Shown here piece by piece: positions 3,698 through 63,441 of a stretch of 64,000 nucleotides of DNA (position 1 is its first letter; each line of letters opens with the position of its first letter). The DNA comes from a virus (lineage: Duplodnaviria; Caudoviricetes), in the IMG/VR virus record IMGVR_UViG_3300036832_001498, positions 1,924-65,923 of that record. One strand, written 5' to 3'. Under the pieces are notes generated by a model. It worked only from the letters and a program-made list of their open reading frames with translations, was not told where the DNA came from and did no database searches. A program made the translations under genes and the position numbers.

Positions 3698-3725
3698 AAC
3701 CCAATGAGAAGCGAAAGGAGCGACG

Positions 3726-4572: not shown

Positions 4573-4624
4573 TAGGGGGCAACAGTTGTCAACCGTCGTT
4601 TGCCCTACGCAGGAGGAGCAAATC

Positions 4625-4684
4625 ATGTTCGTGTCTAGCCATATTGCATTGGCTGAGGACGCAACCGAAGCGGGGTTGCGATGA
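4625..4684 (+). CDS. 19-aa leader ORF MFVSSHIALAEDATEAGLR coupled to zinc-finger gene
   Basis: Strong AGGAGGAG RBS; stop overlaps next ATG (ATGA). Confidence 0.4.
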   Translation: MFVSSHIALAEDATEAGLR

Positions 4685-5541
4685 GCGCTGCCCCGGTTCT
4701 CACCGCCGATATCAGAAAGCAGCCGGGCAAACACGGCGCTTACCTCTGCCCGGAATGCGGTTCGCGCTATCCCGGAAAATTTGCTCTGGGCGAGCATCGT
4801 CAGAAGCAGCACGACATCCCCAATGACTGGGTGAAGCACACCAAGGGCAGGCCGCCCAAGCCTGCGAGTGATCGCACCGCCAAGATCCCCACCCTCGACA
4901 TCGTCCAGCGCAACGGCCAGTTCAAGTGTCCGGAGTGCGGCGAAAAGTTTCCCAAGCGCAACACCCTCGGGGTGCACCGCGCTTCTAAGCATGGGGTGCG
5001 CGGCACCTCGGTCGCGGCCAAAAACTACGCCGTGAACCGCGCTGCCACGACTCACGTGAATGGTCACATTGCGACCACCGCCGTCAAGCTGGTGCGGGGC
5101 AAGTATCGCTGCCCGGAGTGCCAGGCGAAGTACAACGATCTGCAGCATCTCGGTCTGCACCGGCGTGCCGCCCACGACATCCACGGCGTGTTCAGCTTCA
5201 AGCACCAAGCCCGACAAAAACAAAAACAACTACTCCTGAAAGGAGCACAGCAGAATGAGTACCCAGCCAGCCATGAAACCGACAACGATCCAGCCTATCT
5301 CTCCCCGTCCCCGCAACCTGTATCACCGAACGGCGCGGGCCGAAGAAAAACAGCGTGGACAAACGAGTCCCTCTCCGGCTTCGTTTTCGCCCACGTCCAC
5401 TCTCTCATCGAAGATGCGTGCCGAGGGCGTGAAGACGCTATCCCGGACGTTACCCAGCGGATTTCAGAGCTTCTTCACCTTGAGATACATGGGCAAGCGG
5501 CGCGGGCACAGCGTGTGGGGCTGCTACGTCGTATGTCCTGA
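4681..5541 (+). CDS. Protein with three classical C2H2 zinc fingers
   Basis: Three (Y/F)xCPEC-x12-H-x4-H units with conserved aromatic and Leu positions. Confidence 0.8.
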   Translation: MSAAPVLTADIRKQPGKHGAYLCPECGSRYPGKFALGEHRQKQHDIPNDWVKHTKGRPPKPASDRTAKIPTLDIVQRNGQFKCPECGEKFPKRNTLGVHRASKHGVRGTSVAAKNYAVNRAATTHVNGHIATTAVKLVRGKYRCPECQAKYNDLQHLGLHRRAAHDIHGVFSFKHQARQKQKQLLLKGAQQNEYPASHETDNDPAYLSPSPQPVSPNGAGRRKTAWTNESLSGFVFAHVHSLIEDACRGREDAIPDVTQRISELLHLEIHGQAARAQRVGLLRRMS

Positions 5542-5653
5542 GTGTGGGGCCAAGCCTGACCCGGATCAGGTGCCGCCCCACCGCCGCTGGCAGTGGTTGA
5601 CCATGCACACGCTCGTAGCTCATCGCGAGGTCTTCGTCCCTCCGGCCAACTGA
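5255..5653 (+). CDS. Overlapping hypothetical with C-terminal CPEC...H...H motif (alternative start about 5489)
   Basis: Preceded by AAGGAGCACAGC motif; overlaps previous gene in another frame. Confidence 0.45.
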   Translation: MSTQPAMKPTTIQPISPRPRNLYHRTARAEEKQRGQTSPSPASFSPTSTLSSKMRAEGVKTLSRTLPSGFQSFFTLRYMGKRRGHSVWGCYVVCPECGAKPDPDQVPPHRRWQWLTMHTLVAHREVFVPPAN

Positions 5654-18211: not shown

Positions 18212-18249
18212 GGACGAGTGTTCCTCCAATGGTTGCTTGTCTCCTAGTT

Positions 18250-27016: not shown

Positions 27017-27162
27017 CAAAAATGTGATATCACTCGTCGCACTCGCACGGTTCTTAAGCGACGAGTGCCACGAGTGGTTCGCTATCGCCATGGAAACAAA
27101 GTCACTAGAGAACTCGCACTCGCCGGTTAACAAACGCACGAGTGCGACGAGTCTGGCTTGAA

Positions 27163-30100
27163 ATGATTCATTCTCTCTGTCCCTTCCAGTCTCCTGACGG
27201 CATCGACTACGTGCTGTACTGGATCGATCTGGTGCCGCAGGCGCTGAATCTTTCCAATCACGTCGTGGTCACGCCTGCAGTGAACGGCGCACCGGTGACT
27301 TCGTCCGACCGCTGGAACTACGCGCTCGGGCGCACCGGATTTCTCTACGCCTGCAACGGCAGCGACAAGAAATTCTTCGATGGGCTGGTGTGGCGCGAGT
27401 ACGGCCTGCCCGCCCTGACCGAAGCTGAAGTCGAAGGCATCACCTTCTCGCTCGGCACTGCCGGGCTCAGCGACGCGCAGGTGGGCGCAGTGACGCTGGC
27501 CATGGGCGGAGCCTCTGCTCCCTACCTCACCGGCGCGAGTCCGACCACCTGCGTCGATCTGAATTTCTGGAACATGCCGCACGACATGAACGGCGCGTTC
27601 GGCTACTTCAACGCGGCTGATCCCAACATCGGTTCCAGTCCTGCAGTTCCGGCTGCGGCGCATACCACCACCGGCGACAGCTTGATGTTCAACCCGCGCT
27701 CCATGAATCAGCATCCGCTGGAGATGACCAACTACGACGGCAGCGGAGTGAACGATGGCACCTACCCACATCCGTGGCCTGCCATGCCCACCCAGTTCTG
27801 GCTGATGGCTGCAGCCTCGACACTGGTCATTCCCGCCGAAGGCAACTACACCATGCTGGTCGAGCACGATGATGGCTTCTTCTTCGGCATCGACAGCAGC
27901 GCGGCTCTGATCTCCGGGCCCACGGTCGACGGCTTCATCCACACCATCACCGCGCTCAATTCCTATCCCGTGATCGGCGCGAACAATGTCAGCGGGCATG
28001 CGACCGACACCTTCATCATTTACTTCCCGGCAGCGGGCAACTACAACATCGAGTTCAACTACGCCCAGTGGTACACCGGCCAGCGCCTGACGGTGAAGAT
28101 CGACAACTCGGAAGTGCGCAACGTGGTGCCCATCACTCCCGGATCATCGACCGCCGACAGCATCGGGCGTGATGTGTACTGCGTGCTCTTCGATGAAGAT
28201 GCGGATGTGAGCGCGGATCCGGATGTGGCCCTCTCTCCGCCCGCATTTCTGGGGCGCGTGATTTTCCCCGCAGGCGAGCAGCTGCTGGTGACCGGGCTGC
28301 CCGACTTCACCGGCACCAGTGTGCCGCCTGCAGTTGCCACCAAGCATCTCGACAAGCTGATTGCCATGACCGGCGACGGCGATGTCACTTCGCGCTTCGC
28401 TGTCGATCACAATCTGGGATGCGTTTCAGTCACCGGCTCGCCGGGATCGTCAACCGTCACCACATCAGGATCCGGGGCTGATGTGGCTGCTGGCGACATC
28501 GTGGGTTTTGCGGGCACCGGAGATCCCACGCTCGATGGCAACCTCTACCAGGCGCAGTCGGTCCCGGGTGCGCATCAGTTCACCATCAAATCGATCCCGG
28601 GTGTGCAGACCGGGCTGGTTGTCACCGGCACCGTGAGCGTGCTCTATCGCGCCACCTTTGATCAGACCTCGATGCCGCCCATCAACAACCTGCTCTTCTT
28701 TGGGGGATCGAGCGTTGACACCACCGGCGAGATCGGGATCGCGGGCTCGACCGTGGACACTGCGGATCGCGGCTACCAGTTTTACGCCTGCATCTACAAC
28801 CCGCTGACTGGCCACATCGGCAATCGCATCGCCATCGGCAATCGTGTGATTCCCACAGGACGAACTTCGATCACTCTCGGCAACCTGCCGCAGGTGACGC
28901 TGCGCGATCCCGAGTGGCAGCTGCTGATCGGACGCACCGGCGACGGCGGCGAGGTGCCCTACGCCATCATGCATGCCAATGGCGAATGGCTCACCACCGA
29001 TCAGACCACGCTGAAGATCACCGCATCACAGATCGACGGCGCAGCCGAGCTGCCCATCAACAACGATGAGCCTCCGGCCTTCAACCTGCTGTGGCGTGAA
29101 GGCGACCGCATCTGTGGGGTGAAGTTCGCTGCCGGGCTGCGTGCAACTGTGTGGAGGAGCGGCTCGGAAGCGGATGCCATGACCGGGGACTTCATGGGAG
29201 ACCCCGGCCAGGCGTGGAGTCCCTCGAAGATTGAAACCTTTCCCACGGCGCAGGCCATCGTCGGCGGCTTCGGCTACGACGGCTCCAGCTGGGTCTACAC
29301 CGCGAATGATTTCGCCGAACTGAGCGAACTCACCGGCGAGACCCTGTGGAACGGACCATGGAACGCAGGCATCGCGGGAGCGCATGCTTTCACTCGCGGC
29401 TGGAAGAATCTTCCCTTCTGGCTCTCGCAGGACAAGCAGCTGATGGTGATGATGCCCAACGCCGATCAGACCGAGGGCATTCCCATCTCCAACGAATACG
29501 AAGCGGCGCTGCTCTCGAAGATCGCCGATCCCTACCTCTCGTTCACCGAGGTGCTGTATTTCCGCGCTCCTGAAAAGCAGCTTGACCTGCTGCGCATCAA
29601 GGGCCTCGATCTTTTCCGCAGACCCTTCACCATCATTCACGATTTCAATTTGCGCGATGAGCGCTCGCCCTACGGACAGGGCTATGAGGAAGTCTTCGCG
29701 GGCGAACTGGCGCAGGACTTCACTCACGAAATTGTCCGCGATGGCAATGGACATCAACGTGTGTGGGCAGGCGACACACTCGATCAGCTCTACCAGCTCT
29801 ATGACGGCGACAACGACAACAGCAACGAGTTCACTGCCGATGCACTGGCGCTGGTCTACATCGGACCCAACCGCACAGCGGTGCAGTTCGTCGACTACTA
29901 CGGAGACGAGAACGTGGAGTGGTTTGTGGCGGATCAGCTCAACGCTCAACCCAATCCTTTGCTCATGGAAGATCTGAGCGAGAATGTGCAGCTGGTTCCC
30001 GGGCAGGATTCCGATTCGCACTACCAGATCTCGCTCAACCGTCCCGAGCTGATCCACGCCTATCTGTGGTTTCGCCTGGAGTCACATTCCGCCGACGGCA

Positions 30101-33925: not shown

Positions 33926-36900
33926 ATGGCACTATCGGGCGATAACTCCGGCAACCCGCAGCCCGTCGTGACTCCCGATCTCACCGCACCGCCTGATCTC
34001 ACTCAGCCCGGCAAGGGGCCGGAGTTCGCCGCGAAGAATGCGGATCCCAATCGGATCGATGTGGTCATGCCTCCCTCGCCAGACAATCCGAAAGGTTTGA
34101 AGGGCAGCGTTCCCAAAGAGAATCTCCCGGCTGCTCTGCAGCGGGGTTTCAAAGTTGGCGTGCAGGCAGTGTCGCCGGAGGGCAAGTGGGGTGTCCTGCC
34201 TGCCGACAAGGACTCAGTCGCGGAAGCGAAAAAGCGCGGCTTTCATTTTGGTCCCGCTGCGTCACTGGGCGGCATCCGTCCGCCGCAGCCACCCGCGATG
34301 CAAGAGGCACCCTCAGGCGTGCTCGGCTTAATGGCTGAACCGTGGCAGCAGCATTCCGAGCTTTCGCGAGAGGAAGCGCAGCGCCATGCCAATCTCGCTT
34401 ATGGACCGGACGCAGCTCCTGGAGTTTTGGGCGCACCATCTCGGATCTTCCATGCAATCGCTTCGCCGATACAAGAAGCCGAGGCAGCCGCTTCGGGAGT
34501 GGTCGGTGGTTTGACCAGCGATCCCAAGGCGCTGGCTGCCGTGGCGGCGGGCGCTGTAAATCCAGCGATCCCAGCGGCCTATTTCGGAACGCAGGGCGCA
34601 GCCGGGTTGCTTGGACTCGGTGACAGGCCAAGTTCGGTGAAGCAGGCGATCCTACATCCGACGCCAGAAAATGTTCAGCAGGCACTGTTCGATGCGTCGA
34701 TGGCGTTTGGCGCAGCCGGAGAGGGAGTGCGAGGCTTCAAGCCGATTGAAGCAACGCCGGGTGTGCCCGGTTCACCCGTTAACCGTCCGCCCGCTCCTGC
34801 CGAGGGCGCTGCGATGCCTTTACTAAGGGCGGCAAAGCGGGGCGCGATAGATCCGTTGCTGCAGGGTGTGCGCGGGATCTATGACCCAGCAGCGCTGACT
34901 CCGACTGAAGCCGCGACCAAAGCGTTTCGCCCGAGAAACTCCAAAGCTAACTGGCAGGCTGAAATTCAATCCTCGCTTCCGCATATGCGCCGCGCCGCCG
35001 ATGACCTGGGCATTGATCCGGAAAACATGACGATGGAGGAGGGCATTCAGGCAACGCAGAAAGCAGCTGTTGACAAGTGGATGGAGTACAAGCGCAACTT
35101 CCTCGGGCCGAATGCGGATGTGGTAGTTGATGCCAGCCCGGTGGCCGCCGCCATTCGCGACAAGATCACAGATCGCATGCGCGAACAGAATCCGGAACTC
35201 GCCGCGAAGATCGAGGCCGTGGCCAAGACCTATGACGGTCGCTCGCTCACCATGGCGCAGCTGCAGCAGCGCGTCTCTGAACTGAACAACGAAATGCGTG
35301 CTACGGAGGCGAAGTTCGTCGGCGACAAGCGAGCTGCGAAACTCAGCCCCAAGAATGCTTACAAGTTTGCCGAGCGCGACACCATGCGCGGGATCATGGA
35401 CGACCGCATGAATCAGCTGAGTGGTCCCGGTGCCGCTCAGATGCGCAAGGACTATGGCGCTCTTCGCTCCGTGGAAGATGTGATGCAGCGCCGCATCAAT
35501 GTTGTGGATCGAGCGGCCCGCGAACCGCTGGCGGCGATGATGGCGAAGATCTATGCCGCCGGTCACATCGTTACCGGTCTTGCCACTGCGAATCCGTGGA
35601 GCGTCTTAAAGGGCGCAACGGCGCTGGCGGCAGAACGTCGCATGCGGTTGCAGCAGGATCCGGATTACCTCACGCAGCTGGCGTTTAAGAACACCAAGCC
35701 CAGCACGCCGATGGAGCCGGAGCCGCCCCCGCAGGGACAGCTGCCGTTCGGCCCGAGCACGCTCTGGGACATCAACCAGACTCCGGCCCCAGAGCCGATT
35801 CAGCCTCCGCTGGCGCTTCCCCCGGGGCAGTACGAGCAGCCGCCCAGCCCTCTGGGCCCGATCTTCCGCTCCCGTCAGCCCCAGCTGGGCAAGGGTGCCG
35901 AGCCGCCGGTGATCCCGCCTTCGAGGCAGCTGGGCCCGGCCAGACCGCACCAGCTCGGGCCGGTGCCAGAACCCCCGGTAAACCCCCTTTTCCCGCGCCT
36001 AGGACGCCGCCAGGGCGTCGCGGAGGCTCCGGGTGGACCTCAGGGGGCAGCCCCAGCGTCTTTACAAAACGTTCCTATAGGAACACTCCCCAAGGATCTG
36101 AAGTCCATGCCGCTGGGCGAGCCCACCACGGTCGGCGGCAGGGCCACGGTCGAGACCGCCAAGGCCGACAACATGTTCTGGGAGCAGGCCAAGCAGGCTC
36201 TGGGACCGAAGGCCACCTTCTCCGAGATCAGCTCCAAGGCTTTGCAGCTGAAAGCTGATGCACTGCGTGAGCGTGGGCCTTCCCCCAGCGGTCGACCTCA
36301 GCCCTTTGAGACGACCACCGGCGCAATGCAGACCATTGAGAATGATCCCAACCTGCCGGTCCACCCGGGCCGGAAACCTCCGCAGGGCACCATCGAGAAC
36401 ATCCCGCCCTTCAGCGGCACCGGCGATCTGGAAGCTCGCCCGCTGGCGATTGGTCCGCCGGGGCCGGAAAGTCCGCAGATGGATCTCGGATTCGGACTGC
36501 CGCGCCGGGCTGGGCAGTTCTTCTCGAAGGCCGAGCAGATCGCCGAAGCCAAGCTGCCGAAGTCCGGAACCGGCGACAGTTTCTTGGCCACGCTGCGCAA
36601 CAACGGAGTCAAGGCTGAGGAAATCTCTGATCTCGGGCTGGATGAATTCGCGGGCAAGCCGAAGGTGACCAAGCAGGAATTTCTGGACGCGGTGCAGAGC
36701 CGCAGGCCTGAGCTTTCGCAGACAGTGCTCGCTGGCGATGACGCCAGATTTGAGAAGTACGCCACCCCGGGCGGCGAGAACTACCGCGAGATTCTCACAC
36801 ATTTTCCACAGAGCGACGCGGCAGCGGCGGCGGAATCGTTCAAGCAAGAAGCCGATGCGCGAGAGCGCGAGATGAACGATGAAATTGATCGGCACAACAA

Positions 36901-40894: not shown

Positions 40895-41137
40895 ATGGGT
40901 GCAGGCATGCCCGCCGCCAAACAATTTCCGCCGCCCAGTGGAGTCGGAGCCAGTCAGGGCTCGAATGTGGTCACACCGGCGCAGCCTGCGCAGCCTGCAT
41001 CAGCTGCGCCCAATCCCCTGTTTCGACCACAGCAGACCGTGCCCGGCTTGGGAGCCGTGCCCGTGCCCGCGAATCCCTATGCAGATTTGCTGAAGGCGCG
41101 AGGCTCTATGCGCTCTCGGACGGGGACTTCTTACTAG
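40895..41137 (+). CDS. Small Pro-rich hypothetical
   Basis: AGGAGG RBS. Confidence 0.55.
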   Translation: MGAGMPAAKQFPPPSGVGASQGSNVVTPAQPAQPASAAPNPLFRPQQTVPGLGAVPVPANPYADLLKARGSMRSRTGTSY

Positions 41138-41594
41138 ATTTTTTCTTCTTGCTTTTGCTGGGCTCGAAGGGATCGATGTAGACCGAGCGCACCGGCAGCA
41201 GGCTCACCACATCTGTGCCCTCGTTGTAGACGAAAACTTTGGGATTGTTTCGACAGGTGATCTTGACGTTGCGCACATGGCGCTCGGGCAGGCCCAGTGC
41301 AGCCCCGCCGGTTTTCAGATCGCTGAGCAATTCTTCGAGAGCCGCTTCCCTGTTCTTGGCGAAGAACAGCAGGTAAGTCTTCATCGCTTCGGCGATTCCC
41401 ATTCCCTCAAATGTCTTGCCGTGCAGCCGCAGGATTTCGCCCTTGCCGGTCGACGGCACTGGCTGATTCAAAATGAGCAAAAAATCTTCCAGTTCTTTCA
41501 CCTTGGCTCGATAGCTCATCAATCGTTTCTCCACTTCTTGAATGGTCTGTTGTTTGATGTCGACATCAGCGTCGAAGGCCAGAGTGGTTTCCAT
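41106..41594 (-). CDS. Coiled coil plus winged-helix-like protein (moron orientation)
   Basis: Lower GC; opposite strand at end of late operon. Confidence 0.5.
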   Translation of the reverse strand: METTLAFDADVDIKQQTIQEVEKRLMSYRAKVKELEDFLLILNQPVPSTGKGEILRLHGKTFEGMGIAEAMKTYLLFFAKNREAALEELLSDLKTGGAALGLPERHVRNVKITCRNNPKVFVYNEGTDVVSLLPVRSVYIDPFEPSKSKKKKSSKKSPSESA

Positions 41595-41738
41595 AGGTTT
41601 GGGATCCTTGTTCCTGCAGCGAAACAAGCCTAGCCTAAGCCAGCAGCGGCTTGCAGGTCAAATGAAATTCCCTTCAGGGAAGTGTCTGGGGTGGAACTTA
41701 GGGAAAATCCTTAGGGGTGTTGGTGTAGAATTCCCGCC

Positions 41739-41948
41739 ATGCCCACTCAGGCGATTGAACTCACTCCGGATCGGATCAAGCTCTGCCGCGAGGCCACCGA
41801 CCAGGTGCTGGCTGCCTTCGCAGCGTCCCGGCTCACGGATCATGAGATCATGCTGACGCTCTCCATGATGCTGCGCTACTACGAGGACAAGACCGGTACG
41901 CAGATCACCGGCATGGTCGGAGTACCCAAGGGAGCGGTGGGGGCCTAA
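41739..41948 (+). CDS. Small hypothetical, probably leaderless
   Basis: TAGAAT -10 at 41726-41731, 7 nt before ATG; no SD. Confidence 0.5.
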   Translation: MPTQAIELTPDRIKLCREATDQVLAAFAASRLTDHEIMLTLSMMLRYYEDKTGTQITGMVGVPKGAVGA

Positions 41949-42754
41949 TGAAAAGCTTCGTGCACTGGCTGGGCTGGCACGGCACGCAGGGTCACGTGCC
42001 TTTGATCTACGTCGGATCCGACGGCGTCGCCCAGCCTTACATCTCATCTTCCATCGCGATCTGCGACGACCAGTGCAAGCGCATGCTGGAGCGTGAGATC
42101 GATGGCGTGAACGTCGACTACTACGGCCCCAAATCCGCGAGCGCTCTGGCGTACCTCAGAATGCTGTACGCGTGCGAGCGGGCAGGCCTGAGCTACTCGG
42201 TGTGCATCGATCAGGGCGCGGTCAAAAACGCCAGCGACAAAACGCAGGCCTACATCGATGTGATCAACTTCGTGGTCGATGCGTTCTGTGTTTCGCCTGC
42301 CTACGAGCGCACCGGCGATGGCAGGCCGATGATGAATTTTTTCAACGAGCCTCCGAACGTCGACTGGGGCAAGGTGCGGGCAGGAATCCCCAACGGTGAT
42401 CAGATCGCATTTCTGTTTCAGGGCGGCGTGGGTTTCACGCACGCCGAATCGGATGGCGGGTACGGCTGGGTCAACCCCACTTCCAATCCCGGTGACATCA
42501 ACATTCCGGCGCTCGACACCTTCGTGAACGCGGCGAAGCAGAACCCGAACAAGATCGCGTGGTATCCGATTTATCCCGGCTTCGATGATTCCATCGCGGG
42601 CTGGTCGAAGCATCGCTTCATGGCGCGGCAGCTCGACCGCACCCTGAAACAGACGCGAGCCAAGGTGCCGCTGGATGCCGAGTACGAGCTGGTTGTGACG
42701 TGGAACGATCACGAAGAAGGAACCGCAATTGAGACTGGAGTGTGCACGCTCTGA
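41948..42754 (+). CDS. Glycoside hydrolase, GH71/GH99-like
   Basis: IDGVNVDYYG, YPGFDD, VTWNDHEEGTAIE. Confidence 0.7.
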   Translation: MKSFVHWLGWHGTQGHVPLIYVGSDGVAQPYISSSIAICDDQCKRMLEREIDGVNVDYYGPKSASALAYLRMLYACERAGLSYSVCIDQGAVKNASDKTQAYIDVINFVVDAFCVSPAYERTGDGRPMMNFFNEPPNVDWGKVRAGIPNGDQIAFLFQGGVGFTHAESDGGYGWVNPTSNPGDINIPALDTFVNAAKQNPNKIAWYPIYPGFDDSIAGWSKHRFMARQLDRTLKQTRAKVPLDAEYELVVTWNDHEEGTAIETGVCTL

Positions 42755-42770
42755 GTGCTAGAATTGAGCC

Positions 42771-42845
42771 GCATCAGTAGGTGAGTCGCGAGGCTCATTT
42801 GCTGTGCTCCTTGGCCCCGGCTGCTAACCGGGGCCGTAATTATTT
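42771..42845 (+). ncRNA. Candidate trans-acting antisense small RNA (anti-RBS seed GCUGUGCUCCUU)
   Basis: Extended -10 TGCTAGAAT (42756-42764); GNRA hairpin 42781-42798; seed 42801-42812; 8-bp GC hairpin 42813-42835 plus AU tail. Confidence 0.5.
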
Positions 42846-43043
42846 GGGGAGCATCGAAGGCAGTTGGGGCAGCGCTCTCTCCAGCAGTTTCAACTCCAGC
42901 GCAGTTGGCTGAGCTTCTCCGCGCTCGATCAGCGACAGATGCGTGGCCGAGATTCCGCAGAGATGGGCCACGTCCACTTGCCGCAGGCCTGCTGCAATCC
43001 TCCGCAATCGAAAACTCAAGCTGCGTGGAATTTCCTCTGGCAT
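42840..43043 (-). CDS. XRE-family HTH regulator (repressor/Cro-like), probably leaderless
   Basis: RRIAAGLRQVDVAHLCGISATHLSLIERG; TAGAAT 6 nt before ATG. Confidence 0.8.
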   Translation of the reverse strand: MPEEIPRSLSFRLRRIAAGLRQVDVAHLCGISATHLSLIERGEAQPTALELKLLERALPQLPSMLPK

Positions 43044-43102
43044 GCGGACATTCTAAAACAACTGTTGCAATCGGAATCTCTCGTACTACGACGAATTACG
43101 AA

Positions 43103-43177
43103 TGGTGGCCGGGGGGAGAATTGAACTCCCCACGCCTGCCTTTTCAGGGCAGCGCTCTACCGATGAGCTACCCGGCC
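43103..43177 (-). tRNA. tRNA-Phe(GAA) with encoded CCA
   Basis: Acceptor GGCCGGG/CCCGGCC-ACCA; anticodon arm CTGCC-CTGAAAA-GGCAG; T arm GGGAG-TTCAATT-CTCCC. Confidence 0.9.
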
Positions 43178-43189
43178 ACAGGCGAAAAA

Positions 43190-43385
43190 CCGGTCACACA
43201 ACTATCACACGGCTGTGTAACCAGACTGACCTAACTGACCTAACTAACCACGTAGAATCTGCAACTTGCTGATTCCACATGCCGCTAGGCAGATGGAGTT
43301 GTTCTCCGGCCCCTCTTTTAAATAGAGCGACTTGCAAAAGATTCTTCGAAGTTTGTTACACAACTATTACGCGAACTGTGCTAGG
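43190..43385. mobile_element. Candidate attP region
   Basis: Direct repeats GT(C/T)ACACAACTAT(C/T)AC at 43193 and 43355; 9-bp tandem ACTGACCTA; IHF-like CAACTTGCTGATT at 43262; next to integrase. Confidence 0.55.
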
Positions 43386-43423
43386 ATGTTCTCGGGTTGA
43401 AACACACCCAAGGAGCACAGCCA

Positions 43424-44998
43424 ATGAACACCACGATTGATCTCGCCGCTGAGCAGGCCGCGATGCGAGCCCGCCAGATCCCAGCCAAGACTGTTCAACC
43501 AATCGCAGTTGAAGACTTCTCCACTGAAAATGAAGTCGCCGTCGCATGCGCTCACAAGTGGACCGAATTCCTGATCAAGCAAACTCCCGGGATCCGCCCC
43601 GAAGCGAAGGCCATTGTTCTTCGTCACGCGAAGACGTGCAAGCACCAAGACGGCAGCGAGGAATGCGAGTGCAGCAAGTGGATGTATGTGCGCGGCGAGC
43701 GCGAGCGGTTCCCTCTCTTTGTGAGAAACTGGGCAGCGGCCCGAGAGCGCGTGAAGGAATACTGCGACCGCCGCGATGTCAAGATGGTGCGCGAGCTGCA
43801 ACGCGCCGAGGAGTGGGACGCCGAGCACAGCTACCAACGCATGCTGCTCACCGATGGCATCCAACTGATGATCCAAGCCAAGCTGACCGCGAAGGACACC
43901 ACTAGGAATCTGGGCCGCGACGTCGCCACCAGCAAGATCGCCACCATCTCGAAACACTTCTTTGCGTTTCTCGACCGTTACAACCGGAGCCGACCGAGCG
44001 CCGAGCCGATCCGCTATTTCGATCAGATCACCACCGGCCTCTTGCAGGATCAGTGGAGGCCGACGTGGCCAGCGCGGACCTTCAACACGAAATTCAACTA
44101 TCGCACCAACGTCATCCACATTTTCCACTACGCCATGGATCAGCACTGGATGCCCGACACGCGCAAGCTGGGTGGCGATGGCAAGTGCCAGTGCGTGGCG
44201 TGCCGGATGCTCGCACTCACCGGCAAGGGCGACGTGCAGTCGAAGCTGCCCTTCAACATGCCCGACAAGGTCCACACCAGCCCTGAGTGGCAGATGCGCT
44301 ACATCCTCGATGCATGCAAGAAACTCAAATCGGATGTTCGCCCGCACCTCGGCCAGCGCCTCGCAGCTTTGATCGAGGTGGGCAGCTGGGGCGGCGCTCG
44401 CATCTCCGACACATCGCTGATGGCGCGAAGTGCGGTTGATCTGAACACGGGCTCGTGGACGTATCAGCCGCTGAAGACGCGCAACACCAGCAAGAAGTGG
44501 GTCACCACGCAGCTGCCGCCTCACGTTTGCCAGCTGCTGCGCGAGCTGCCTGCCGCCGCTGACTCCGATCCCGATTACTTCTTCTGGACCGGGAAATCGC
44601 TGGAGCAGAACGCCGCTGATCCGTGGCACGACGATCTCTCGCAGCTCTGGGCGCTGGTCGACAAGCGAGCGGGAATTCGTCAGCACAAAAACGACAAGGG
44701 GCAGATGGTCTGGGGGATTCGTGATCCCAAGCAGGGTGGCCGCTGGTCGAAGGTTTCGTTTCACAGTTTCCGGAACACGTTCGCGGTTCGGTGCCGCATG
44801 AGTGGTATGAGCTTCGCCCGCATCGGGGAGCTGATCGGCGACACCGAGCAGACTGTGAAGGATCACTACGCGCACTACACAGAAGGCGTCATGAATGCCA
44901 CCACCGCCGATCTGCGGCAGACTTGGCCGACGCGGCAGCACGAGGAGCTGGTTCTCAGAGAATCAGCTTCCTCGGTGGGCCACGTCGCACAGGCTTAG
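43424..44998 (+). CDS. int: Tyrosine recombinase / integrase
   Basis: GARISD (R), PLKT (K), FHSFRNTFA (HxxR), LIGD, DHYAHY (Y). Confidence 0.9.
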   Translation: MNTTIDLAAEQAAMRARQIPAKTVQPIAVEDFSTENEVAVACAHKWTEFLIKQTPGIRPEAKAIVLRHAKTCKHQDGSEECECSKWMYVRGERERFPLFVRNWAAARERVKEYCDRRDVKMVRELQRAEEWDAEHSYQRMLLTDGIQLMIQAKLTAKDTTRNLGRDVATSKIATISKHFFAFLDRYNRSRPSAEPIRYFDQITTGLLQDQWRPTWPARTFNTKFNYRTNVIHIFHYAMDQHWMPDTRKLGGDGKCQCVACRMLALTGKGDVQSKLPFNMPDKVHTSPEWQMRYILDACKKLKSDVRPHLGQRLAALIEVGSWGGARISDTSLMARSAVDLNTGSWTYQPLKTRNTSKKWVTTQLPPHVCQLLRELPAAADSDPDYFFWTGKSLEQNAADPWHDDLSQLWALVDKRAGIRQHKNDKGQMVWGIRDPKQGGRWSKVSFHSFRNTFAVRCRMSGMSFARIGELIGDTEQTVKDHYAHYTEGVMNATTADLRQTWPTRQHEELVLRESASSVGHVAQA

Positions 44999-45176
44999 GC
45001 GTGCTGTTGCGCATGCGCAACAGTGTTTGCTCGACCACGGAGTGAGGGACGAAGAATCTTCTGCCGTCCCTCACCGTGAGCGGGTGGTGTTTGAAGTGGC
45101 GCGATATCCGCTGACGGGTCCAGCTCAGCAGCGGCACCAGTTCTTTCGCGGTGTAGTACTTCTCAATCGCCGCCAT
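44955..45176 (-). CDS. Excisionase-like small basic wHTH protein
   Basis: YYTAKELVPLLSWTRQRISRHF; convergent with int; GGAG RBS. Confidence 0.6.
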   Translation of the reverse strand: MAAIEKYYTAKELVPLLSWTRQRISRHFKHHPLTVRDGRRFFVPHSVVEQTLLRMRNSTPKPVRRGPPRKLIL

Positions 45177-45177
45177 A

Positions 45178-45978
45178 TCAAAACTCCAGTTCTTCTTTTT
45201 CTTCGGCTTCGCAATGCGGGCATTCGTAGCCTTGAAAGCGGCCATGCTTGTAGCACTGCGACCAAAGATCTTCCGCATCCTCGGGGTAGTCGGGATAGTC
45301 GCGATACTCGCGATGCTCGGGATAGTCGTGATACTCGGGAGCGGCGGGGCCATGGTCGGGATCGTGCAGCAGCGGATCAGGCAGCGCCGCCAGCTTGGGT
45401 GAGTAATCCGTTGTCGACAAGGTTTCCATCTTTCGCGTCACCGATTGCCTCACCCAATACGCAAAGCTCTTGTCGTAGGGGTTTTTATTTCTAGTGGCAT
45501 TGCGCCACCAGTCCTCGTGCTTTCCTTCTTTTGCGAACAGCCAGCCGAAGATCGTGAACCTCGGTAATCGATCTGCGAGCACCAGAATGAACTTCTCGTG
45601 GTCGAGATCTTCGTTGTGCAGAGTCAGGTCGCCCCACTTTTCGCTGTTGCCCCGCACCTGGAGCGTGCCGACGTCGGGCTTGAAATACTCCCCCAAGCGA
45701 CCTGACCAGTATTCGTTGCGCCACTTAGCGACCGAGTATTCGCAGCAGCCACCGATGAAGTTGTTCTGAACACCGCGCTTGGGATCGGGACCGCCGCCCC
45801 GGTAAGGCACGACCGGCTCACCCCGCCTCTCCCTGTCCTCGATGTAAGCAATGAAGCGGTCGGTTCCGGCGGTATTCGCAATGCGCAGCTCAGTTGACGA
45901 CAAGTAAACCTCGATGACCCTTCTGCCCTTCAGAGTGGTCTCGATGATCGGTTTTTTCAGCGTCGCCTCGACCATCAC
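45178..45978 (-). CDS. Hypothetical with PDY-type repeats and C-terminal CxxHG...CPxC motif
   Basis: GCCEYSVAKW, PDVG..QVR, FILV, GWL motifs; GAGGAG RBS. Confidence 0.6.
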   Translation of the reverse strand: MMVEATLKKPIIETTLKGRRVIEVYLSSTELRIANTAGTDRFIAYIEDRERRGEPVVPYRGGGPDPKRGVQNNFIGGCCEYSVAKWRNEYWSGRLGEYFKPDVGTLQVRGNSEKWGDLTLHNEDLDHEKFILVLADRLPRFTIFGWLFAKEGKHEDWWRNATRNKNPYDKSFAYWVRQSVTRKMETLSTTDYSPKLAALPDPLLHDPDHGPAAPEYHDYPEHREYRDYPDYPEDAEDLWSQCYKHGRFQGYECPHCEAEEKEELEF

Positions 45979-46820
45979 ACTCTCGCGGTTTCGCGCTCCT
46001 CGTCCTTCATCGCAGCGGGCATGATGGGGCGGCGGGTCTTGAGTTGAACGTGCATGCGGTCGCGGATGTCTTCCATAGCGCGGATGTGGACCTTGGCTTG
46101 ATGCAGCAGATGCTCCCAGACCTCGCGCAGCTGACCTTCGTCAATGGCTCCGGATTCGTACTGATCGATCATTTTTTTGTAGCTGGTGTTGTTGCGCTTG
46201 GTGAGTCCGTAGTAGCGCTGCGTCACCGCTCCCTTCCACGCGCCGGTGTTAGGAGTGCTGAAGTCATCGTGCTCGATCCTGCCGCGCAGCTTGCACTCCA
46301 CGTCAGTCACGTCGACGCGATAGAACGCAGCCGCCTTTTCCAGCGGCTCGCCGTCACTCACCGCTGCAGCTGCAGCGGCCACCCGCTGCCGCACCCAGCG
46401 CCGCGACGCCGCATCGAACATTTTCTTGCCGATGCTTTTGGGGTAAGGCAGAGCTGCCTTGATGCGCCGCGAGGAGTTCCCTGCAATCAGCAGATCGATG
46501 ATGGACTTGCACACATCGTTCCAGCTCAGCTCCTTCGAGCCACCCAGGTTGGCCTTGATCGCAGTCATCACCAGCTCAAGGTCGTCGTGCACCGGCGTCA
46601 CCTTGCACTCGACCTCCTCGACTTCCAGACGCTGCAGCGCCATCAGGCGATGACGGCCATCGATCAGGCGATTGTCCTGCGCGATCTCGAGCGGCGGTAT
46701 GGGCCCGGCATCGGCGGCGGTGTAGAGATCCATGAACATGTTGACGCGCTCTTCGCTGGCGTTGGAGCGCACGTAGGTGGTCACGCGAATCTGGTCGAGT
46801 CGGATGGTTTTTGTGCTCAT
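45975..46820 (-). CDS. ParB/Srx N-terminal domain protein
   Basis: IPPLEI...LIDGRHRLMAL. Confidence 0.75.
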   Translation of the reverse strand: MSTKTIRLDQIRVTTYVRSNASEERVNMFMDLYTAADAGPIPPLEIAQDNRLIDGRHRLMALQRLEVEEVECKVTPVHDDLELVMTAIKANLGGSKELSWNDVCKSIIDLLIAGNSSRRIKAALPYPKSIGKKMFDAASRRWVRQRVAAAAAAVSDGEPLEKAAAFYRVDVTDVECKLRGRIEHDDFSTPNTGAWKGAVTQRYYGLTKRNNTSYKKMIDQYESGAIDEGQLREVWEHLLHQAKVHIRAMEDIRDRMHVQLKTRRPIMPAAMKDEERETARV

Positions 46821-47095
46821 TGCTGTGCTCGATTCAGGATCTGCGCAGCGCTGTAGGTGCGCGATCCGGCTGGGGCTGTGCCCACGCTGTAGGAGGTTTG
46901 CTGATATTGGGCGTCGCTGCTGGTCTTCCGGCCCTTGGCGGTGACGGCGTAAGCCTCCTGGATCTCGCTGCTCACGTCACCCGGGCCCAGAACACCGAGA
47001 TTGCCACCACCGAGACCGCCATGCGCCGCCCGACGCAGCACCTGCTTGCTTTCCAGCTGCTTCAATACCTGCAGCGCCGGGCTTACGCAAAAGGG
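46817..47095 (-). CDS. Start-less -1 frame extension of 47083-47304 gene (frameshift product)
   Basis: About 90 open codons without own RBS/ATG; C CCT TTT slippery site at 47089-47095; stop coupled to ParB-like start. Confidence 0.55.
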   Translation of the reverse strand, partial: PFCVSPALQVLKQLESKQVLRRAAHGGLGGGNLGVLGPGDVSSEIQEAYAVTAKGRKTSSDAQYQQTSYSVGTAPAGSRTYSAAQILNRAQQ

Positions 47096-52899: not shown

Positions 52900-53096
52900 G
52901 GATACCGCTCCCGTTCGACGAAGTGGATCAGCGCTTTCACATCGATGAGTACGCGCCGCCCCAGCCTGTAGGCAGGCAGCTCGCCATGCCGTATGGCGTC
53001 ATCGATGGTTCGCGTGGAAACATCGATCAGCCGGGCGGCGTGCTGCCGACCTACGAACAGCTTTTCCTTGAGGTCGCTGGGGAGTTCCTCGCTCAT
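52896..53096 (-). CDS. Excisionase-type HTH (HTH_17) DNA-binding protein
   Basis: AARLIDVSTRTIDDAIRHGELPAYRLGRRVLI. Confidence 0.8.
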   Translation of the reverse strand: MSEELPSDLKEKLFVGRQHAARLIDVSTRTIDDAIRHGELPAYRLGRRVLIDVKALIHFVERERYP

Positions 53097-53347
53097 GCCG
53101 CCTTCTGTATGTCACCGAGCGGAACGCGGCAGCGCCGCTCGGTCCCCAGTGGCAGGATCGTCGCCCACTTGCGCCCCAGCTTCACCAGTACGGCGTGGCC
53201 CCATCCGCCCTGCCGCTTTCTCCAGAAGCGAATGGTCTCGCCGCAGCTGGGGCGGTGCTGTTTGCGGCAGCAGCTGCAACTGCCGTCCGGGTTGAGTTCG
53301 ACGACTTCGACATGTTCCATCAGACATTCTCCGCATTTCATTGTCAT
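53093..53347 (-). CDS. Small Zn-ribbon protein
   Basis: CGEC...CSCC; AGGAGCACAGC RBS. Confidence 0.6.
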   Translation of the reverse strand: MTMKCGECLMEHVEVVELNPDGSCSCCRKQHRPSCGETIRFWRKRQGGWGHAVLVKLGRKWATILPLGTERRCRVPLGDIQKAA

Positions 53348-53371
53348 TGTGCTGTGCTCCTGTTTTTGTGA

Positions 53372-53829: not shown

Positions 53830-54227
53830 TTTCCGTGCTCCCGTGTGATCGTTCCAACTTTGAAACCGGTCGGGGGCTGCGGCTGCGCCAGAGCTGCTGG
53901 CGTGGTCGCGGTCGCTTCGTTGGATGCTATCGAAAGCCCGGGGCAGTTGGCGTTGCCATAAGCTTTCGCGGTGTAGTAGTACGTGGTCGAGGCTTGCACG
54001 GTCGCATCGGTGTAACTGCAGGCCGATGTCGCGGTGGGGTTGAGCGAGGTCGTGGACTCTCCTCCCGGCGTGGTCCCCCGATAAAACATGTAGCCTGCGA
54101 CGCAGGTGGAATTCGATGCCGTACAGGTGAGCAGAATCGTGTGTGCGCTCAGCGCCCTCGCTCCCACCTCTTGCGCCATCAGGCTCGAAGAAAAAAAGAC
54201 GAGGACGGCGATGAGAGCTTTTCTCAT
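53826..54227 (-). CDS. Secreted FN3-like protein (one domain)
   Basis: Signal peptide; LTCTAS...GYMFYRGTTPG...YTD..V....YYY. Confidence 0.7.
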   Translation of the reverse strand: MRKALIAVLVFFSSSLMAQEVGARALSAHTILLTCTASNSTCVAGYMFYRGTTPGGESTTSLNPTATSACSYTDATVQASTTYYYTAKAYGNANCPGLSIASNEATATTPAALAQPQPPTGFKVGTITREHGK

Positions 54228-54880: not shown

Positions 54881-54892
54881 TGGGTGCTCCTT

Positions 54893-60517: not shown

Positions 60518-60680
60518 GGCGCATCTTCCTTTCCAGTTTTCGGAGCAGCTGGCGGATCTCGATCTCCAGCGCGTTCACCTCGGCCTGCTGCTCACGGTTG
60601 CGCTCGCCGCAGCAGGTGCAGGCGAGCGAGTAGCACTCATGATGCTCGCCTGCAGCGCAGAAGTAACACTGGCCGGTCAT
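60510..60680 (-). CDS. Small Cys-rich hypothetical
   Basis: CYFC..G.H..C....CTCC. Confidence 0.55.
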   Translation of the reverse strand: MTGQCYFCAAGEHHECYSLACTCCGERNREQQAEVNALEIEIRQLLRKLERKMRHA

Positions 60681-61297
60681 GCCTGCGCCCCCTTGGCCAG
60701 CTGCTCGGCGATCTGCTCGCACTCCTGGACTTCACGCTCCGAGATCCGGTCCCAGTCGACACTGCAGGAGGATTCAGAGTCGGGCACTTCCTGTCCGATG
60801 GGGCCGATCATGGGGCACATTTCGAGCGTGCCTTCAAACAGGCGGTAGTAGCGGGTGACCGCCGCCGGAGAGCCATCAGGGAAGCCCTGCAGCCAGCAGG
60901 CCTGCCAGGCTGTGGTCAGGTTGCCGTAGCGATGCGCGGACTTGCCTACCCCAGGCCCCTTGACCTCCGCAATGCCGTGCCTGCGCTTCAACACTTCCAC
61001 GCGCTTGTCGAGAGACGGCGCGAGGTCAGGCCGCCACTGGTGAATAGCTTCCAGAATCGCTTCCGGCGTGTCCGCCTCTTGGTTGCTGGCGGCGCAGTAC
61101 GTACCCGCTTCGCGGGAGATGCGATCCGCGTCCTTCAGGGTGATGGCATCGCGCAAGATTTCCAGTTGCCGCTCCAAAGGCAGTTCGGAAACCCGGCTGT
61201 CACCGTCCGCGCTGTGGCGGTGGGCGTAGGCCAGGCAGGCTTCGTTGAAGTACACGCCGTCGTTGGCGTTAGGATCTTGCTTCTTTTTGTCAGTCAT
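60677..61297 (-). CDS. Hypothetical
   Basis: AAGGAGCACAGC RBS. Confidence 0.65.
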   Translation of the reverse strand: MTDKKKQDPNANDGVYFNEACLAYAHRHSADGDSRVSELPLERQLEILRDAITLKDADRISREAGTYCAASNQEADTPEAILEAIHQWRPDLAPSLDKRVEVLKRRHGIAEVKGPGVGKSAHRYGNLTTAWQACWLQGFPDGSPAAVTRYYRLFEGTLEMCPMIGPIGQEVPDSESSCSVDWDRISEREVQECEQIAEQLAKGAQA

Positions 61298-61335
61298 GCT
61301 GTGCTCCTTTTTTGTATGTACAAAGTTGTGGTGAC

Positions 61336-61602
61336 TTATTTCGCATCCGGCCTGAAGGCGCGACCGAAGGCGTAGTCCTTGCCCGTGCCGCCGGATTGCG
61401 CCCAGTTGGCGTTGCCCAGCCGGTCGAGATGCTGCAGGGTGATATGGCCGGTGATGCGGCCATCGGCGGCGATGAGAGTGATCTCGTCGATGGCGTCAAG
61501 ACCGGCGATGTACAAGATGTTCTTGTTGCCGCTGCCGAGGCGCAGCATGGGCTGACCCTCGGCGAACTGCTTGGCGGCGGAATAGCGCTTGAAGGCTTTC
61601 AC
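61336..61602 (-). CDS. Hypothetical
   Basis: GGAGG RBS, GTGA coupling. Confidence 0.55.
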   Translation of the reverse strand: MKAFKRYSAAKQFAEGQPMLRLGSGNKNILYIAGLDAIDEITLIAADGRITGHITLQHLDRLGNANWAQSGGTGKDYAFGRAFRPDAK

Positions 61603-61904
61603 TGTTTCACCTCCAGCGCGGCTTCGGCTTCGCGGATGCGTTTCTGGTAGTGGAGAAAGTCGGTAGTGAGATCCATCGAGGCCTCGCTCAGCGCGGTCAT
61701 CAGGCGATCCAGCTGCTGCCCGACCGCGACCAGTGATTTCGCGGACTTCTCTGACATGGGATGGCGGACGCCCCGGTGAAATGATCCCTTGGCGCGATGC
61801 GCGTGCGCCGCCACGCGCTCCATGGCTTCGCGGGTTTCCTTGGCAGCGTTGAATCCCATGCGGGAGAACTTCAGAACCTCGAGTGGCTGTTCCATTTTTT
61901 CCAT
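61599..61904 (-). CDS. Hypothetical coiled coil
   Basis: AGGAGCACAGC RBS. Confidence 0.6.
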   Translation of the reverse strand: MEKMEQPLEVLKFSRMGFNAAKETREAMERVAAHAHRAKGSFHRGVRHPMSEKSAKSLVAVGQQLDRLMTALSEASMDLTTDFLHYQKRIREAEAALEVKQ

Positions 61905-61971
61905 GTGCTGTGCTCCTGATGCGAGTTGCATCGATCACCGGCTGCGAGGGCAGCCGGTCAACGTTGCAGCC

Positions 61972-62151
61972 CTAGCGCTGATAGCAGGCTTGGTAAACCA
62001 GATGTTCGAGTTCGCGTTGAGCCTGACGCAACACGTCGGTCACGGCGCATGCGTTGGGGCTGAAGCCCTGAGTCGCGGTGATGTAGTCGCGAACCCGGAG
62101 CAGCTTGTTGATGTAGATGGATCGTTGGCGGCGAGTGATTTTTTTCGTCAT
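61972..62151 (-). CDS. Small hypothetical
   Basis: AAGGAGCACAGC RBS. Confidence 0.55.
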   Translation of the reverse strand: MTKKITRRQRSIYINKLLRVRDYITATQGFSPNACAVTDVLRQAQRELEHLVYQACYQR

Positions 62152-62162
62152 GGCTGTGCTCC

Positions 62163-63098
62163 TTAGCTGAGATTGGTGTAGAAGCCGTAGTTCGAGGCGA
62201 CCAGCCGGAACTTCTCGACCAGCGCGTTCCAGTCGCCCTCGGCGAAGCGTTCGCAGCCGTCGTGATCCTCGAAGCTCCAGCCGTTCTGGGCGGCGTCGCG
62301 CCACACTCTCCAGATGTAGACCGCGCCATCGGCATCGGTCAGGCGCACCCGGATGCGCGTGTCGTTGCGCTTGCCGCTGACCACCCGCGCCTGCTGATGG
62401 GCGGCGTCGGAAGCCCGTCCCGGCTTGTCGTGGCGCGTCTGCAGGGCCCGCAACTCGCAGCCCTCCGAGTGTCCCAGGTTCAGGTCGTTGCCCTCACCGC
62501 AGCCGCAGCCCACGGTGCGGAAGGCCAGCGTGTCGCCGATGAAGCCGGAGAGAATCTGCTCCGCCATTCGCTTGCCGTACTTGCTCACGAAGGCGGCCAT
62601 GGTCATCAGCTCCTGCCCTTTGGTGGCCACGATCTCGACCACTACGAAGCGCCGCGCCTTCTTCGCCTTCGCCTTCGCCGGTGCGGGGGAAACCACTCCC
62701 GGCCCCTGACACTCGGGACAGGTGTGGCCATCCACTTCGCCCTTGCCTCGGCAATATCGGCACATCGTGTTCTTGGCTGGCGCTGCCGGATCACACTGCA
62801 GAGTGCGAGCATGCTTATTACCGCCATGAACTGCTTTGCATTCGCAGTACACCTTCGCCGGTGCCCTGAAGGGCAGCACGGCGCTGCGCAGCTCGCTGGG
62901 GCTGCCCTTGCAGTAGCTCAGCCAGTTGCCGTCCTTGAGAATTTCGGTGTAGAGCATGACCACCCCGGAATCATTCACGTAGGACGAATAGGGCGAGATG
63001 CGGAAGGTTTCGTTGGGACAGCTGCGAAGTGCGAAGGTGGCGGGGAATTCCGCCGAGGCTTTTTCGATCTGCGTTTTCTGCTGTTGAGTTCCCATCAT
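62163..63098 (-). CDS. Multi-module hypothetical with DnaJ-type CxxCxGxG Zn repeat
   Basis: CRYCRGKG...CPECQGPG; AAGGAGCACGGC RBS. Confidence 0.65.
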   Translation of the reverse strand: MMGTQQQKTQIEKASAEFPATFALRSCPNETFRISPYSSYVNDSGVVMLYTEILKDGNWLSYCKGSPSELRSAVLPFRAPAKVYCECKAVHGGNKHARTLQCDPAAPAKNTMCRYCRGKGEVDGHTCPECQGPGVVSPAPAKAKAKKARRFVVVEIVATKGQELMTMAAFVSKYGKRMAEQILSGFIGDTLAFRTVGCGCGEGNDLNLGHSEGCELRALQTRHDKPGRASDAAHQQARVVSGKRNDTRIRVRLTDADGAVYIWRVWRDAAQNGWSFEDHDGCERFAEGDWNALVEKFRLVASNYGFYTNLS

Positions 63099-63153
63099 GG
63101 CCGTGCTCCTTTTGAGTTTGAGTTGTACGTACAAAGTTGTTGTGACGCTGAGG

Positions 63154-63408
63154 CTATTTACCGAACCCGCCAAAGCATTTCTCGCAGCGCTCCATGCGGT
63201 CCGCCTGGGCCACCGTCAGCTTCCAGTGGTCGACCACATGCTTGCACCAGTGACCACAACCCAAGCACGAAGAGCCGGAGGTAGCGACGTGCACCATGCG
63301 CCCCGTCTTGCCGCCCTTGACCAGGATGTCCTGAATCACGTGACCATCGGCGCAGGTGAACTGCCGCAGCTTGAATTCGCTTAGCGACTTGTTGTAGCTG
63401 ACCATCAT
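63154..63408 (-). CDS. First gene of leftward early operon, Cys-rich
   Basis: AAGGAGCACGGC RBS; CLGC...CEKC. Confidence 0.6.
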   Translation of the reverse strand: MMVSYNKSLSEFKLRQFTCADGHVIQDILVKGGKTGRMVHVATSGSSCLGCGHWCKHVVDHWKLTVAQADRMERCEKCFGGFGK

Positions 63409-63441
63409 TGCCGTGCTCCTTGCGGTAAAAACCGCATGTCA

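Follow-up and report, generated by a model that had tools for sequence, protein, structure and literature searches.

A candidate phage small RNA complementary to a ribosome-binding motif shared by the integrase gene and seven other genes

A window of 64,000 nucleotides (nt) of phage DNA (Duplodnaviria; Caudoviricetes; bases 1924-65923 of the 65,923-base virus record IMGVR_UViG_3300036832_001498, estimated to be 86% complete) holds, near its tRNA-Phe gene, a short element carrying the exact complement of a 12-nt motif found in front of the integrase gene (int) and seven other genes. On balance, the sequence suggests that this element (42771-42849, plus strand) encodes a small RNA of about 78 nt that would act against the ribosome-binding sites (RBS) of all eight genes. 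An initial annotation had proposed a plus-strand antisense RNA of some 70-80 nt at this place. The proposal gains from a related phage, G010, in which a unit of the same architecture has a sigma-70-type promoter of its own, and loses from the lack of a full promoter in the window.

The motif, AAGGAGCACAGC, consists of a Shine-Dalgarno (SD) core and six further bases. With up to one mismatch allowed, it occurs nine times in the window, as against 0.45 copies expected from shuffled sequences, none of 100 of which reached nine. An ATG lies 0-3 nt downstream of all nine copies, the minus-strand copy at 42801-42812 included, which bears out the annotation's placing of the motif at the RBS of about nine genes. 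The motif is a genuine shared tag. Its CACAGC part, we presume, would not pair with the usual bacterial anti-SD tail.

Relatives were collected through the portal protein. The search returned 218 homologues at an E value of 1e-20 or better, many on contigs of 57-72 kilobases (kb); an alignment of 18 portal sequences led to 26 loci from viral contigs, and ten records (G002-G011) were taken whole. Two of the 30 related or neighbouring records examined carry the motif, namely G002, with nine copies at one mismatch or less, and G010, with two in a 31-kb fragment. The motif was not found in the eight other whole records, nor the exact motif in the 20 further ones. By tblastn, the structural module of the window recurs in G002 (portal 60% identical) and in G010 (57%), and several early genes are also common to G002 and the window. 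Eight of the G002 copies read ...GCACAG(C/A)-N2-4-ATG, and several stand behind a repeated promoter- or operator-like sequence. Across the window, G002 and G010, the motif is conserved in front of different genes.

The element occupies the 85-nt gap between the last late gene, for a glycoside hydrolase (GH) homologue, and a gene for an XRE-type regulator. Direct reading recovered the parts that the annotation had listed: the extended -10 TGCTAGAAT (42756-42764), the GNRA hairpin GTGAGTC-GCGA-GGCTCAT (42781-42798), the 12-mer GCTGTGCTCCTT (42801-42812) that is the exact reverse complement of the motif, an 8-base-pair (bp) hairpin formed by GGCCCCGG (42813-42820) and CCGGGGCC (42828-42835), and the tail GTAATTATTTGGGG (42836-42849). 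Transcription would be predicted to start about 7 nt past the extended -10, at G42771, the candidate RNA thereby beginning 16 nt beyond the GH stop codon (42752-42754). The 12-mer had been described as unpaired. The predicted fold leaves no more than UCCUU (42808-42812) open, at unpaired probabilities of 0.40-0.97, and buries the rest inside a 16-bp stem in which GCAUCAGUAG pairs with UUGCUGUGC, so that the 3′ arm holds the UUGCUGUGC of the anti-motif. A terminator scan scores the second hairpin as an intrinsic terminator, with 9 pairs and the tail TAATTATTTG behind them. Folding of 42771-42850 gives a predicted -43.0 kcal/mol (z -4.8) on the plus strand and -28.5 kcal/mol (z -3.0) on the minus strand. 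A cmscan of 41000-45000 (E up to 1) returned the tRNA only, with no C4 or other Rfam family. A bidirectional terminator was considered and rejected, as no U-run follows the hairpin on the minus strand.

The relative G010 bears on which strand is functional. Its integrase gene (822-2219, minus strand; PF00589, E 7.6e-17) is headed by the motif copy TAGGAGCACAGC-ga-ATG. The second copy (locus L354, 2490-2501, plus strand) matches the motif at 12 of 12 positions, and the first canonical start codon lies 26 nt away. On the strand antisense to this copy, a promoter scan identified TTTGCA-17-TATAAT (2567-2539; 10 of 12 matches), lying 7-8 nt before a GCA conserved with the window, and a terminator of 11 pairs with the tail CTATTTTTGT follows at 2490-2464. 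Promoter and terminator bracket a unit of about 77 nt whose predicted fold reaches -41.3 kcal/mol (z -4.8), the sense strand folding to -32.6 kcal/mol (z -2.05); the scan found no sense-strand promoter before the motif copy. A motif copy that lacks a start codon nearby but has an antisense promoter, stem and terminator leads us to prefer the antisense over the sense strand as the functional one. In a gene map of G010, the genes at 2598-4507 are on the plus strand, and no minus-strand gene occurs before 4504-4740. With no co-oriented gene for about 2 kb upstream, the G010 unit is not merely the terminator of an operon. A tRNA 3′ fragment, read by eye and not called by ARAGORN, lies between the unit and int. 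Both units adjoin the likely phage attachment site (attP; a tRNA or tRNA 3′ fragment), upstream of and co-oriented with a motif-bearing integrase gene.

An ungapped alignment of the two units over 79 columns shows 42 identical positions. Random ungapped 79-nt pairs from the two genomes average 25.8% +/- 5.0% identity, and the best of 2000 trials reached 43%; the mean column identity of 76% given by the alignment program is another measure and not a pairwise identity. Gapped alignment of the 150-nt flanks yields 52-53% identity, where random sequence gives 50.6% +/- 2.3%, and the similarity of the units is thus an island. In both, the predicted 5′ end GCA pairs with the UGC that ends the stem part of the anti-motif; both have a GNRA tetraloop closed by C-G in columns 18-21 (GCGA in the window, GUAA in G010), the UCCUU linker and a GC-rich terminator. 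The register of the lower stem differs. All 16 cells of the eight shared stem pairs are paired (19-69% in slid controls), and three of the eight are changed on both sides, from G-U to U-A, U-A to C-G and G-C to C-G. GNRA loops and G-U pairs are found on the antisense strand only, which also folds better by 9-14 kcal/mol and is favoured on these grounds. An open reading frame (ORF) conserved across the element was tried as a candidate and rejected, the frames differing between the two phages.

Pairing was evaluated with energies from the seed region; values from duplexfold for the whole RNA were dropped as inflated by long, loop-rich duplexes. The 12-bp duplex is worth -21.5 kcal/mol. The A-to-G variants at 63100 and 63410, which the annotation had taken as tolerated by wobble pairing, are real and would give a G-U pair at little change in energy (-20.8 kcal/mol); the C variant gives -21.2 kcal/mol. 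The predicted cost of opening the whole 12-mer is 12.8 kcal/mol for the window and 11.75 for G010; for the UCCUU toehold by itself it is 0.65 and 0.95, respectively. Of 80 gene starts tested, ten offered the seed region 12 or more contiguous pairing positions and the other 70 no more than 11. The ten comprise the ORF in cis (24 positions), the eight tagged genes (12-15) and a partial copy at 59976-60245 (12, with two G-U pairs). The best predicted target in trans is int, with a duplex of -35.4 kcal/mol: its message CCAAGGAGCACAGC offers 14 bp, one C/U mismatch and then AAUGA against UCAUU, so that 19 of 20 positions pair from the SD sequence through the AUG. In G010 the seed continues with UC, matching the GA after the motif in G010 int and in the G002 copies, which extends the pairing to 13 bp.

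We infer from these features that the RNA is transcribed, pairs in vivo and represses, along the following lines. Either the extended -10 would serve as a promoter of its own, or the RNA would arise when the 3′ end of the late-operon transcript is processed. The UCCUU toehold would nucleate on the AAGGA of a tagged mRNA, and pairing would spread from there, displacing the wobble-rich lower stem. The resulting 12-19-bp duplex would mask the RBS and block initiation; it may also invite cleavage by RNase. The putative targets are int, where pairing would run through the AUG, and the seven other tagged genes, mostly early. As to timing, the lysogen is our preferred stage of expression, where the RNA would have an immunity-type role against tagged messages of the phage itself and of incoming phages, because the element is a self-contained unit beside attP and would lie at the end of the future prophage. 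Accessory units expressed in lysogens typically occupy such a position between the last late gene and attP. The data agree equally well with a late shut-off of early genes, which in the window could come about through the 3′ end of the late operon.

Table 1. Features of the window discussed in the text
Feature	Position	Strand	Evidence or remark
Plus-strand, largely structural genes	1-42754	+	codon-usage gene map
Motif copy 5240-5251 and gene 5255-5653	5240..5653	+	15 contiguous pairs, 1 G-U
Last late gene, GH99/GH71-like glycoside hydrolase homologue	41948..42754	+	homologues carry PF16317 or PF03659
29-codon ORF behind minus-strand motif copy (AAGGAGCACAGC-aa-ATG)	42709..42798	-	overlaps end of convergent GH gene by 46 nt
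Extended -10-like TGCTAGAAT	42756..42764	+	sequence reading; overlaps GH gene end
Candidate small RNA, about 78 nt: stem-loop 1, UCCUU linker, terminator hairpin with U-rich tail	42771..42849	+	
Stem-loop 1: 16 bp, one bulge, 4 G-U pairs, GNRA loop GCGA at 42788-42791	42771..42807	+	
Anti-motif GCUGUGCUCCUU, exact complement of AAGGAGCACAGC	42801..42812	+	
Intrinsic-terminator-like hairpin: 9 pairs (8 G-C), loop of 7, tail UAAUUAUUUG	42812..42849	+	terminator scan
XRE-type helix-turn-helix (HTH) regulator, 67 amino acids (aa), convergent with candidate RNA	42840..43043	-	HTH_3, E 2.5e-10
tRNA-Phe	43103..43177	-	ARAGORN and Rfam
Motif copy 43410-43421 and tyrosine integrase gene 43424-44998	43410..44998	+	motif search, PF00589
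Early genes, including RecE/Cas4-like exonuclease and ParB-like protein	64000 down to 44955	-	codon-usage gene map
Motif copy CAGGAGCACAGC 53351-53362 and gene 53093-53347	53093..53362	-	12 pairs
Motif copy 61298-61309 and gene 60677-61297	60677..61309	-	13 pairs
Motif copy CAGGAGCACAGC 61907-61918 and gene 61599-61904	61599..61918	-	12 pairs
Motif copy 62153-62164 and gene 61972-62151	61972..62164	-	15 pairs, 1 G-U
Motif variant AAGGAGCACGGC 63100-63111 and gene 62163-63098	62163..63111	-	12 pairs, 1 G-U
Motif variant AAGGAGCACGGC 63410-63421 and gene 63154-63408	63154..63421	-	15 pairs, 1 G-U

A number of observations speak against an anti-RBS RNA. A promoter scan of 41500-44000 returned no -35/-10 promoter, leaving the extended -10 to stand alone; the U-tail is interrupted in the window (UAAUUAUUUG); and the start of the element, so close behind the last late gene, makes a late-operon 3′ end possible. 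Behind the sense-strand copy in the window (42801-42812, minus strand) an ATG follows after 2 nt. In the window and G010 alike, the predicted stem buries seven of the 12 seed bases. Identity drops to 28 of 65 columns once the 14-nt seed block is set aside, which allows convergence instead of homology, and the covariation comes from two sequences and has no statistical power (68 of 500 shuffles equal the observed value). A scan with a 19-base core pattern found G010 only, and covariance model R1 recovered the element in two of 35 sources (631,215 bases), both of them its own training sequences. In G002, which is rated 100% complete, nhmmer found nothing at E <1 besides motif sites, and the best covariance-model hit (E 0.026) is at a motif site. 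The annotation had named relatives that keep the motif and lack an antisense copy as evidence that would count against it, and G002 is such a relative: it keeps nine motif copies without the element, so the motif works without the RNA. This phage has no integrase either, at least by PF00589, for which the window and G010 each have a match. Among the three motif-bearing phages, a sample of three only, the element accompanies the integrase.

The element might instead be the ordinary 3′ end of the late operon, its two hairpins terminating and stabilising the GH mRNA and the 12-mer being a relic, or an RBS of the other strand, with no antisense role. The 16-nt distance from the GH stop codon, the absence of a -35 box in the window, the score of the second hairpin as a terminator and the ATG 2 nt beyond the minus-strand copy, as with the eight other copies, would all fit such an origin. 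It does not account for G010, where the element stands alone with a 10/12 promoter and no co-oriented gene for about 2 kb upstream; and in both phages, despite unrelated flanks, an exact 12/12 anti-motif is placed directly at the foot of the terminator, which has no need of it. We give this explanation a low, though not negligible, probability.

It also seems unlikely that the RNA serves int alone, as a trans-encoded counterpart of the phage RNAs sar or c4, the other copies being incidental and weaker. Such a restriction would agree with the complementarity to int, by far the longest (14 bp, a mismatch and 5 bp over the AUG; -35.4 kcal/mol), with the presence of the element in both motif-bearing phages that have an integrase and its absence from the one that does not, and with its linkage to attP and int in both. 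Seven other genes, however, offer 12-15 contiguous pairs over the SD sequence, which is ample for repression in bacterial small-RNA systems, and the 13-bp pairing with G010 int is no better than that of a generic motif copy.

We judge it quite improbable that the sense (minus) strand is the functional one, with a hairpin and the motif behind it driving translation of the 29-aa ORF, or with a standby or decoy site for ribosomes within the 3′ part of the XRE mRNA. In favour of this, AAGGAGCACAGC-aa-ATG is perfectly spaced, the copy is downstream of and co-oriented with the XRE gene, and the hairpin lacks a U-tail in that direction, so that XRE transcripts could read through. The annotation had itself raised this ORF as a caveat. 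It is present in the window and is not conserved in G010, and we regard it as probably not a conserved gene, since the G010 copy has no start codon within 25 nt. That copy also lacks a sense-strand promoter by scan, the ORF runs 46 nt into the convergent GH gene, only the antisense strand has G-U pairs and GNRA loops, and the ORFs over the two elements are in different frames relative to the conserved block, as worked out by hand from the coordinates. The least credible explanation has a regulatory protein bind the motif as DNA, with an additional operator beside attP and hairpins of no significance: operator-like palindromes do accompany several copies in the window and G002, and Pope et al. 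2011 (PMC3203893) leave an RNA or a protein ligand open for the start-associated sequences of other phages, but the promoter, the terminator, the GNRA loops and the two-sided pair changes in two phages would go unexplained, as would the place of every other copy 0-3 nt before an ATG.

If the anti-RBS RNA is accepted, one 78-nt gene could control a whole regulon together with the integrase and, if made in the lysogen, would confer a sequence-addressed superinfection immunity between tag-sharing phages. We propose more tentatively that temperate soil phages may tag int and early genes with a private RBS address, mirrored by one RNA at the prophage end that would be both master translational off-switch and immunity factor, able to silence incoming relatives of the G002 type. 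The principle is possibly widespread, and might explain the so-called start-associated sequences, for which an RNA mirroring the tag would give a concrete, testable reader.

Start-associated sequences, or SAS for short (ESAS in their extended form), were described in Cluster K mycobacteriophages by Pope et al. 2011 (PMC3203893), according to parts of which K1 phages hold a single SAS copy in opposite orientation that is not at a gene start. Their role is still called unknown in passages of papers from 2024 and 2025. Both SAS and the present motif are asymmetric tags of 12-13 nt with an SD core, extending, presumably also in our case, beyond any 16S pairing. Both stand a few nt before the ATG of non-structural genes and are conserved on non-homologous genes of related phages, and promoter or operator repeats often lie in front of them. 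They differ in sequence (AAGGAGCACAGC here, GGGATAGGAGCCC in SAS) and in number (8-9 copies here, 11-19 in SAS phages), and phage lineage and host are unrelated. The reverse copy lies here at the foot of a terminator in a unit of about 78 nt, and in the Cluster K phage Anaya it falls in a 385-nt gap, where a hairpin has it in the apical loop. The window motif is an analogue of SAS, not a member, since it has neither the sequence GGGATAGGAGCCC nor the Cluster K lineage. Among the papers searched, none describes an anti-RBS RNA of the present kind or links a phage small RNA to start-associated sequences.

In Anaya (L386, JF704106), the gap with the reverse SAS copy separates gp96 from gp97 and includes a hairpin at 34790-34960; on the transcribed strand, CCUCCUAUCCCC is predicted to form its 12-nt apical loop. 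The non-coding gap is conserved in 182 Cluster K records. In an alignment of ten Cluster K phages (A5), 94.2% of cells are paired, compared with 37-46% in slid controls, and 14 of 38 pairs are changed on both sides, a score reached by none of 500 shuffles. Against the parallel with Cluster K stands phage Bryler, which has canonical SAS (13 exact copies) and a homologous loop complementary at only 9 of 13 positions. Owing to this drift, we claim the parallel for K1-type phages only.

Other phage regulators resemble the candidate RNA in part. The T4 RegA protein is a translational repressor that recognises a loose AU-rich site; like the candidate, it is one phage product shutting off many early messages at their initiation regions, the effector being a protein instead of the proposed RNA with exact base pairing. 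RNAs of the DicF type act in trans through a short seed, end in a terminator hairpin with a U-tail and pair with the RBS of several targets; these targets are host genes with unrelated initiation regions, in contrast to one dedicated tag in the phage's own genome. DicF is listed among prophage small RNAs in a 2025 review (PMC12197685). As given in parts of the same review, the c4 RNA of P1 and P7 measures 77 nt and the sar RNA of P22 68-69 nt, and c4, sar, OOP and other phage RNAs have a single target each. Following these same parts of the review, c4 and sar are, like the candidate, small phage-encoded antisense RNAs that pair around an RBS, block translation and are tied to immunity and lysogeny control. 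Both act on one message (ant), however, whereas the candidate RNA would address a tag of at least eight genes; c4 further differs in having its seeds in loops and in being processed from a longer transcript, and sar in being purely cis-encoded.

Several motif copies are accompanied by further repeats. In the window, operator- or promoter-like repeats built on CTTTGTAC precede copies on the minus strand (63112-63135, 61310-61335); one is the perfect palindrome TTGTACGTACAA and the other reads TTGTACATACAA. In G010, repeats of a similar kind lie on the flanks of the int promoter and of the terminator of the element (L354, 2255-2290 and 2428-2462). They are reminiscent of the "extended SAS" of Cluster K phages, which combine promoter and inverted repeat. 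In G002 (L340), five motif copies (12640-12680, 13420-13460, 15297-15335, 17575-17610 and 18190-18226) have a repeat of about 22 nt 12-16 nt before them, of the form ATAGGCGCA-N-CG-N-GTCTATT-N-T, an imperfect palindrome with a -10-like box. The arrangement suggests that the G002 repeats serve as promoters of early genes whose transcripts share a short leader.

Degenerate forms of the motif (GAGCACAGC or GGAGCAC) are also found in front of other starts in the window, at 46822-46833, 54882-54890, 60248-60256, 53833-53841 and 25882-25888. The gene for the ParB-like protein is among them and pairs with the RNA over 11 contiguous positions. Given these forms, the regulon may be graded instead of all-or-none. 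A pattern scan for AAGGAGCACAGC-N0-4-ATG gave single, chance-like hits among the matches listed, one of them in an unrelated 55.6-kb phage (L193/G001) without resemblance to the window in DNA or protein. In this phage three consecutive small genes (27057-27475) each have (A/C)AGGAGCACAGC-N2-ATG, which places the same extended RBS outside the present phage family.

The neighbours of the element are as annotated, with an XRE gene (HTH_3), a tRNA-Phe gene and the integrase gene following one another. The XRE gene has a TAGAAT box 6 nt 5′ of its ATG and no SD sequence (43044-43055, minus strand), a spacing that suggests its mRNA may be leaderless; the G010 ORF at 2598-2999 has a similar start, with TATAGT 7 nt 5′ of the ATG. 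The tRNA-Phe gene is the likely attP. In soil runs X1 and X2, contigs break or diverge inside it, as expected for attP; run X2 is identical to the window over 42202-43161. A contig of run X3 comes from a diverged relative (134 of 1258 letters differ over 45030-46287) and appears to join 42850 to the tRNA at 43103 through 7 other letters, at the same depth (6.73). If the joint is real, it gives a weak hint that this relative keeps the element, as far as the end of the terminator tail, beside the tRNA without the XRE cassette, weak because it is not visible how long the joint is on either side; the XRE gene and its promoter (42851-43102) would then be an insertion/deletion cassette.

Among the GenBank phages (50,697 records), no match was found for the DNA of 41900-45000, for the portal protein or for the element itself. 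In viral contigs, protein scans with the GH protein or a 430-aa early protein gave nothing useful, the G010 integrase matched itself only, and the XRE protein gave one match of 46% identity (L006). A near-identical copy of the tRNA-Phe was found in none of 401 sampled Acidobacteriota genomes at E 1e-20; two of five Acidobacteriota genomes have a tRNA-Phe 82-83% identical to that of the phage, the other three having no match. The GH protein (41948-42754) has no direct Pfam match. An alignment search of viral contigs identified a GH homologue 49% identical (L007), with different synteny downstream. The closest GH homologues, P0003 and P0004, are on contigs of 68 and 87 kb, and the nearest relatives outside phages, sought in metagenome and genome contigs, are chromosomal genes of Acidobacteriota metagenome-assembled genomes, with 30-35% identity.

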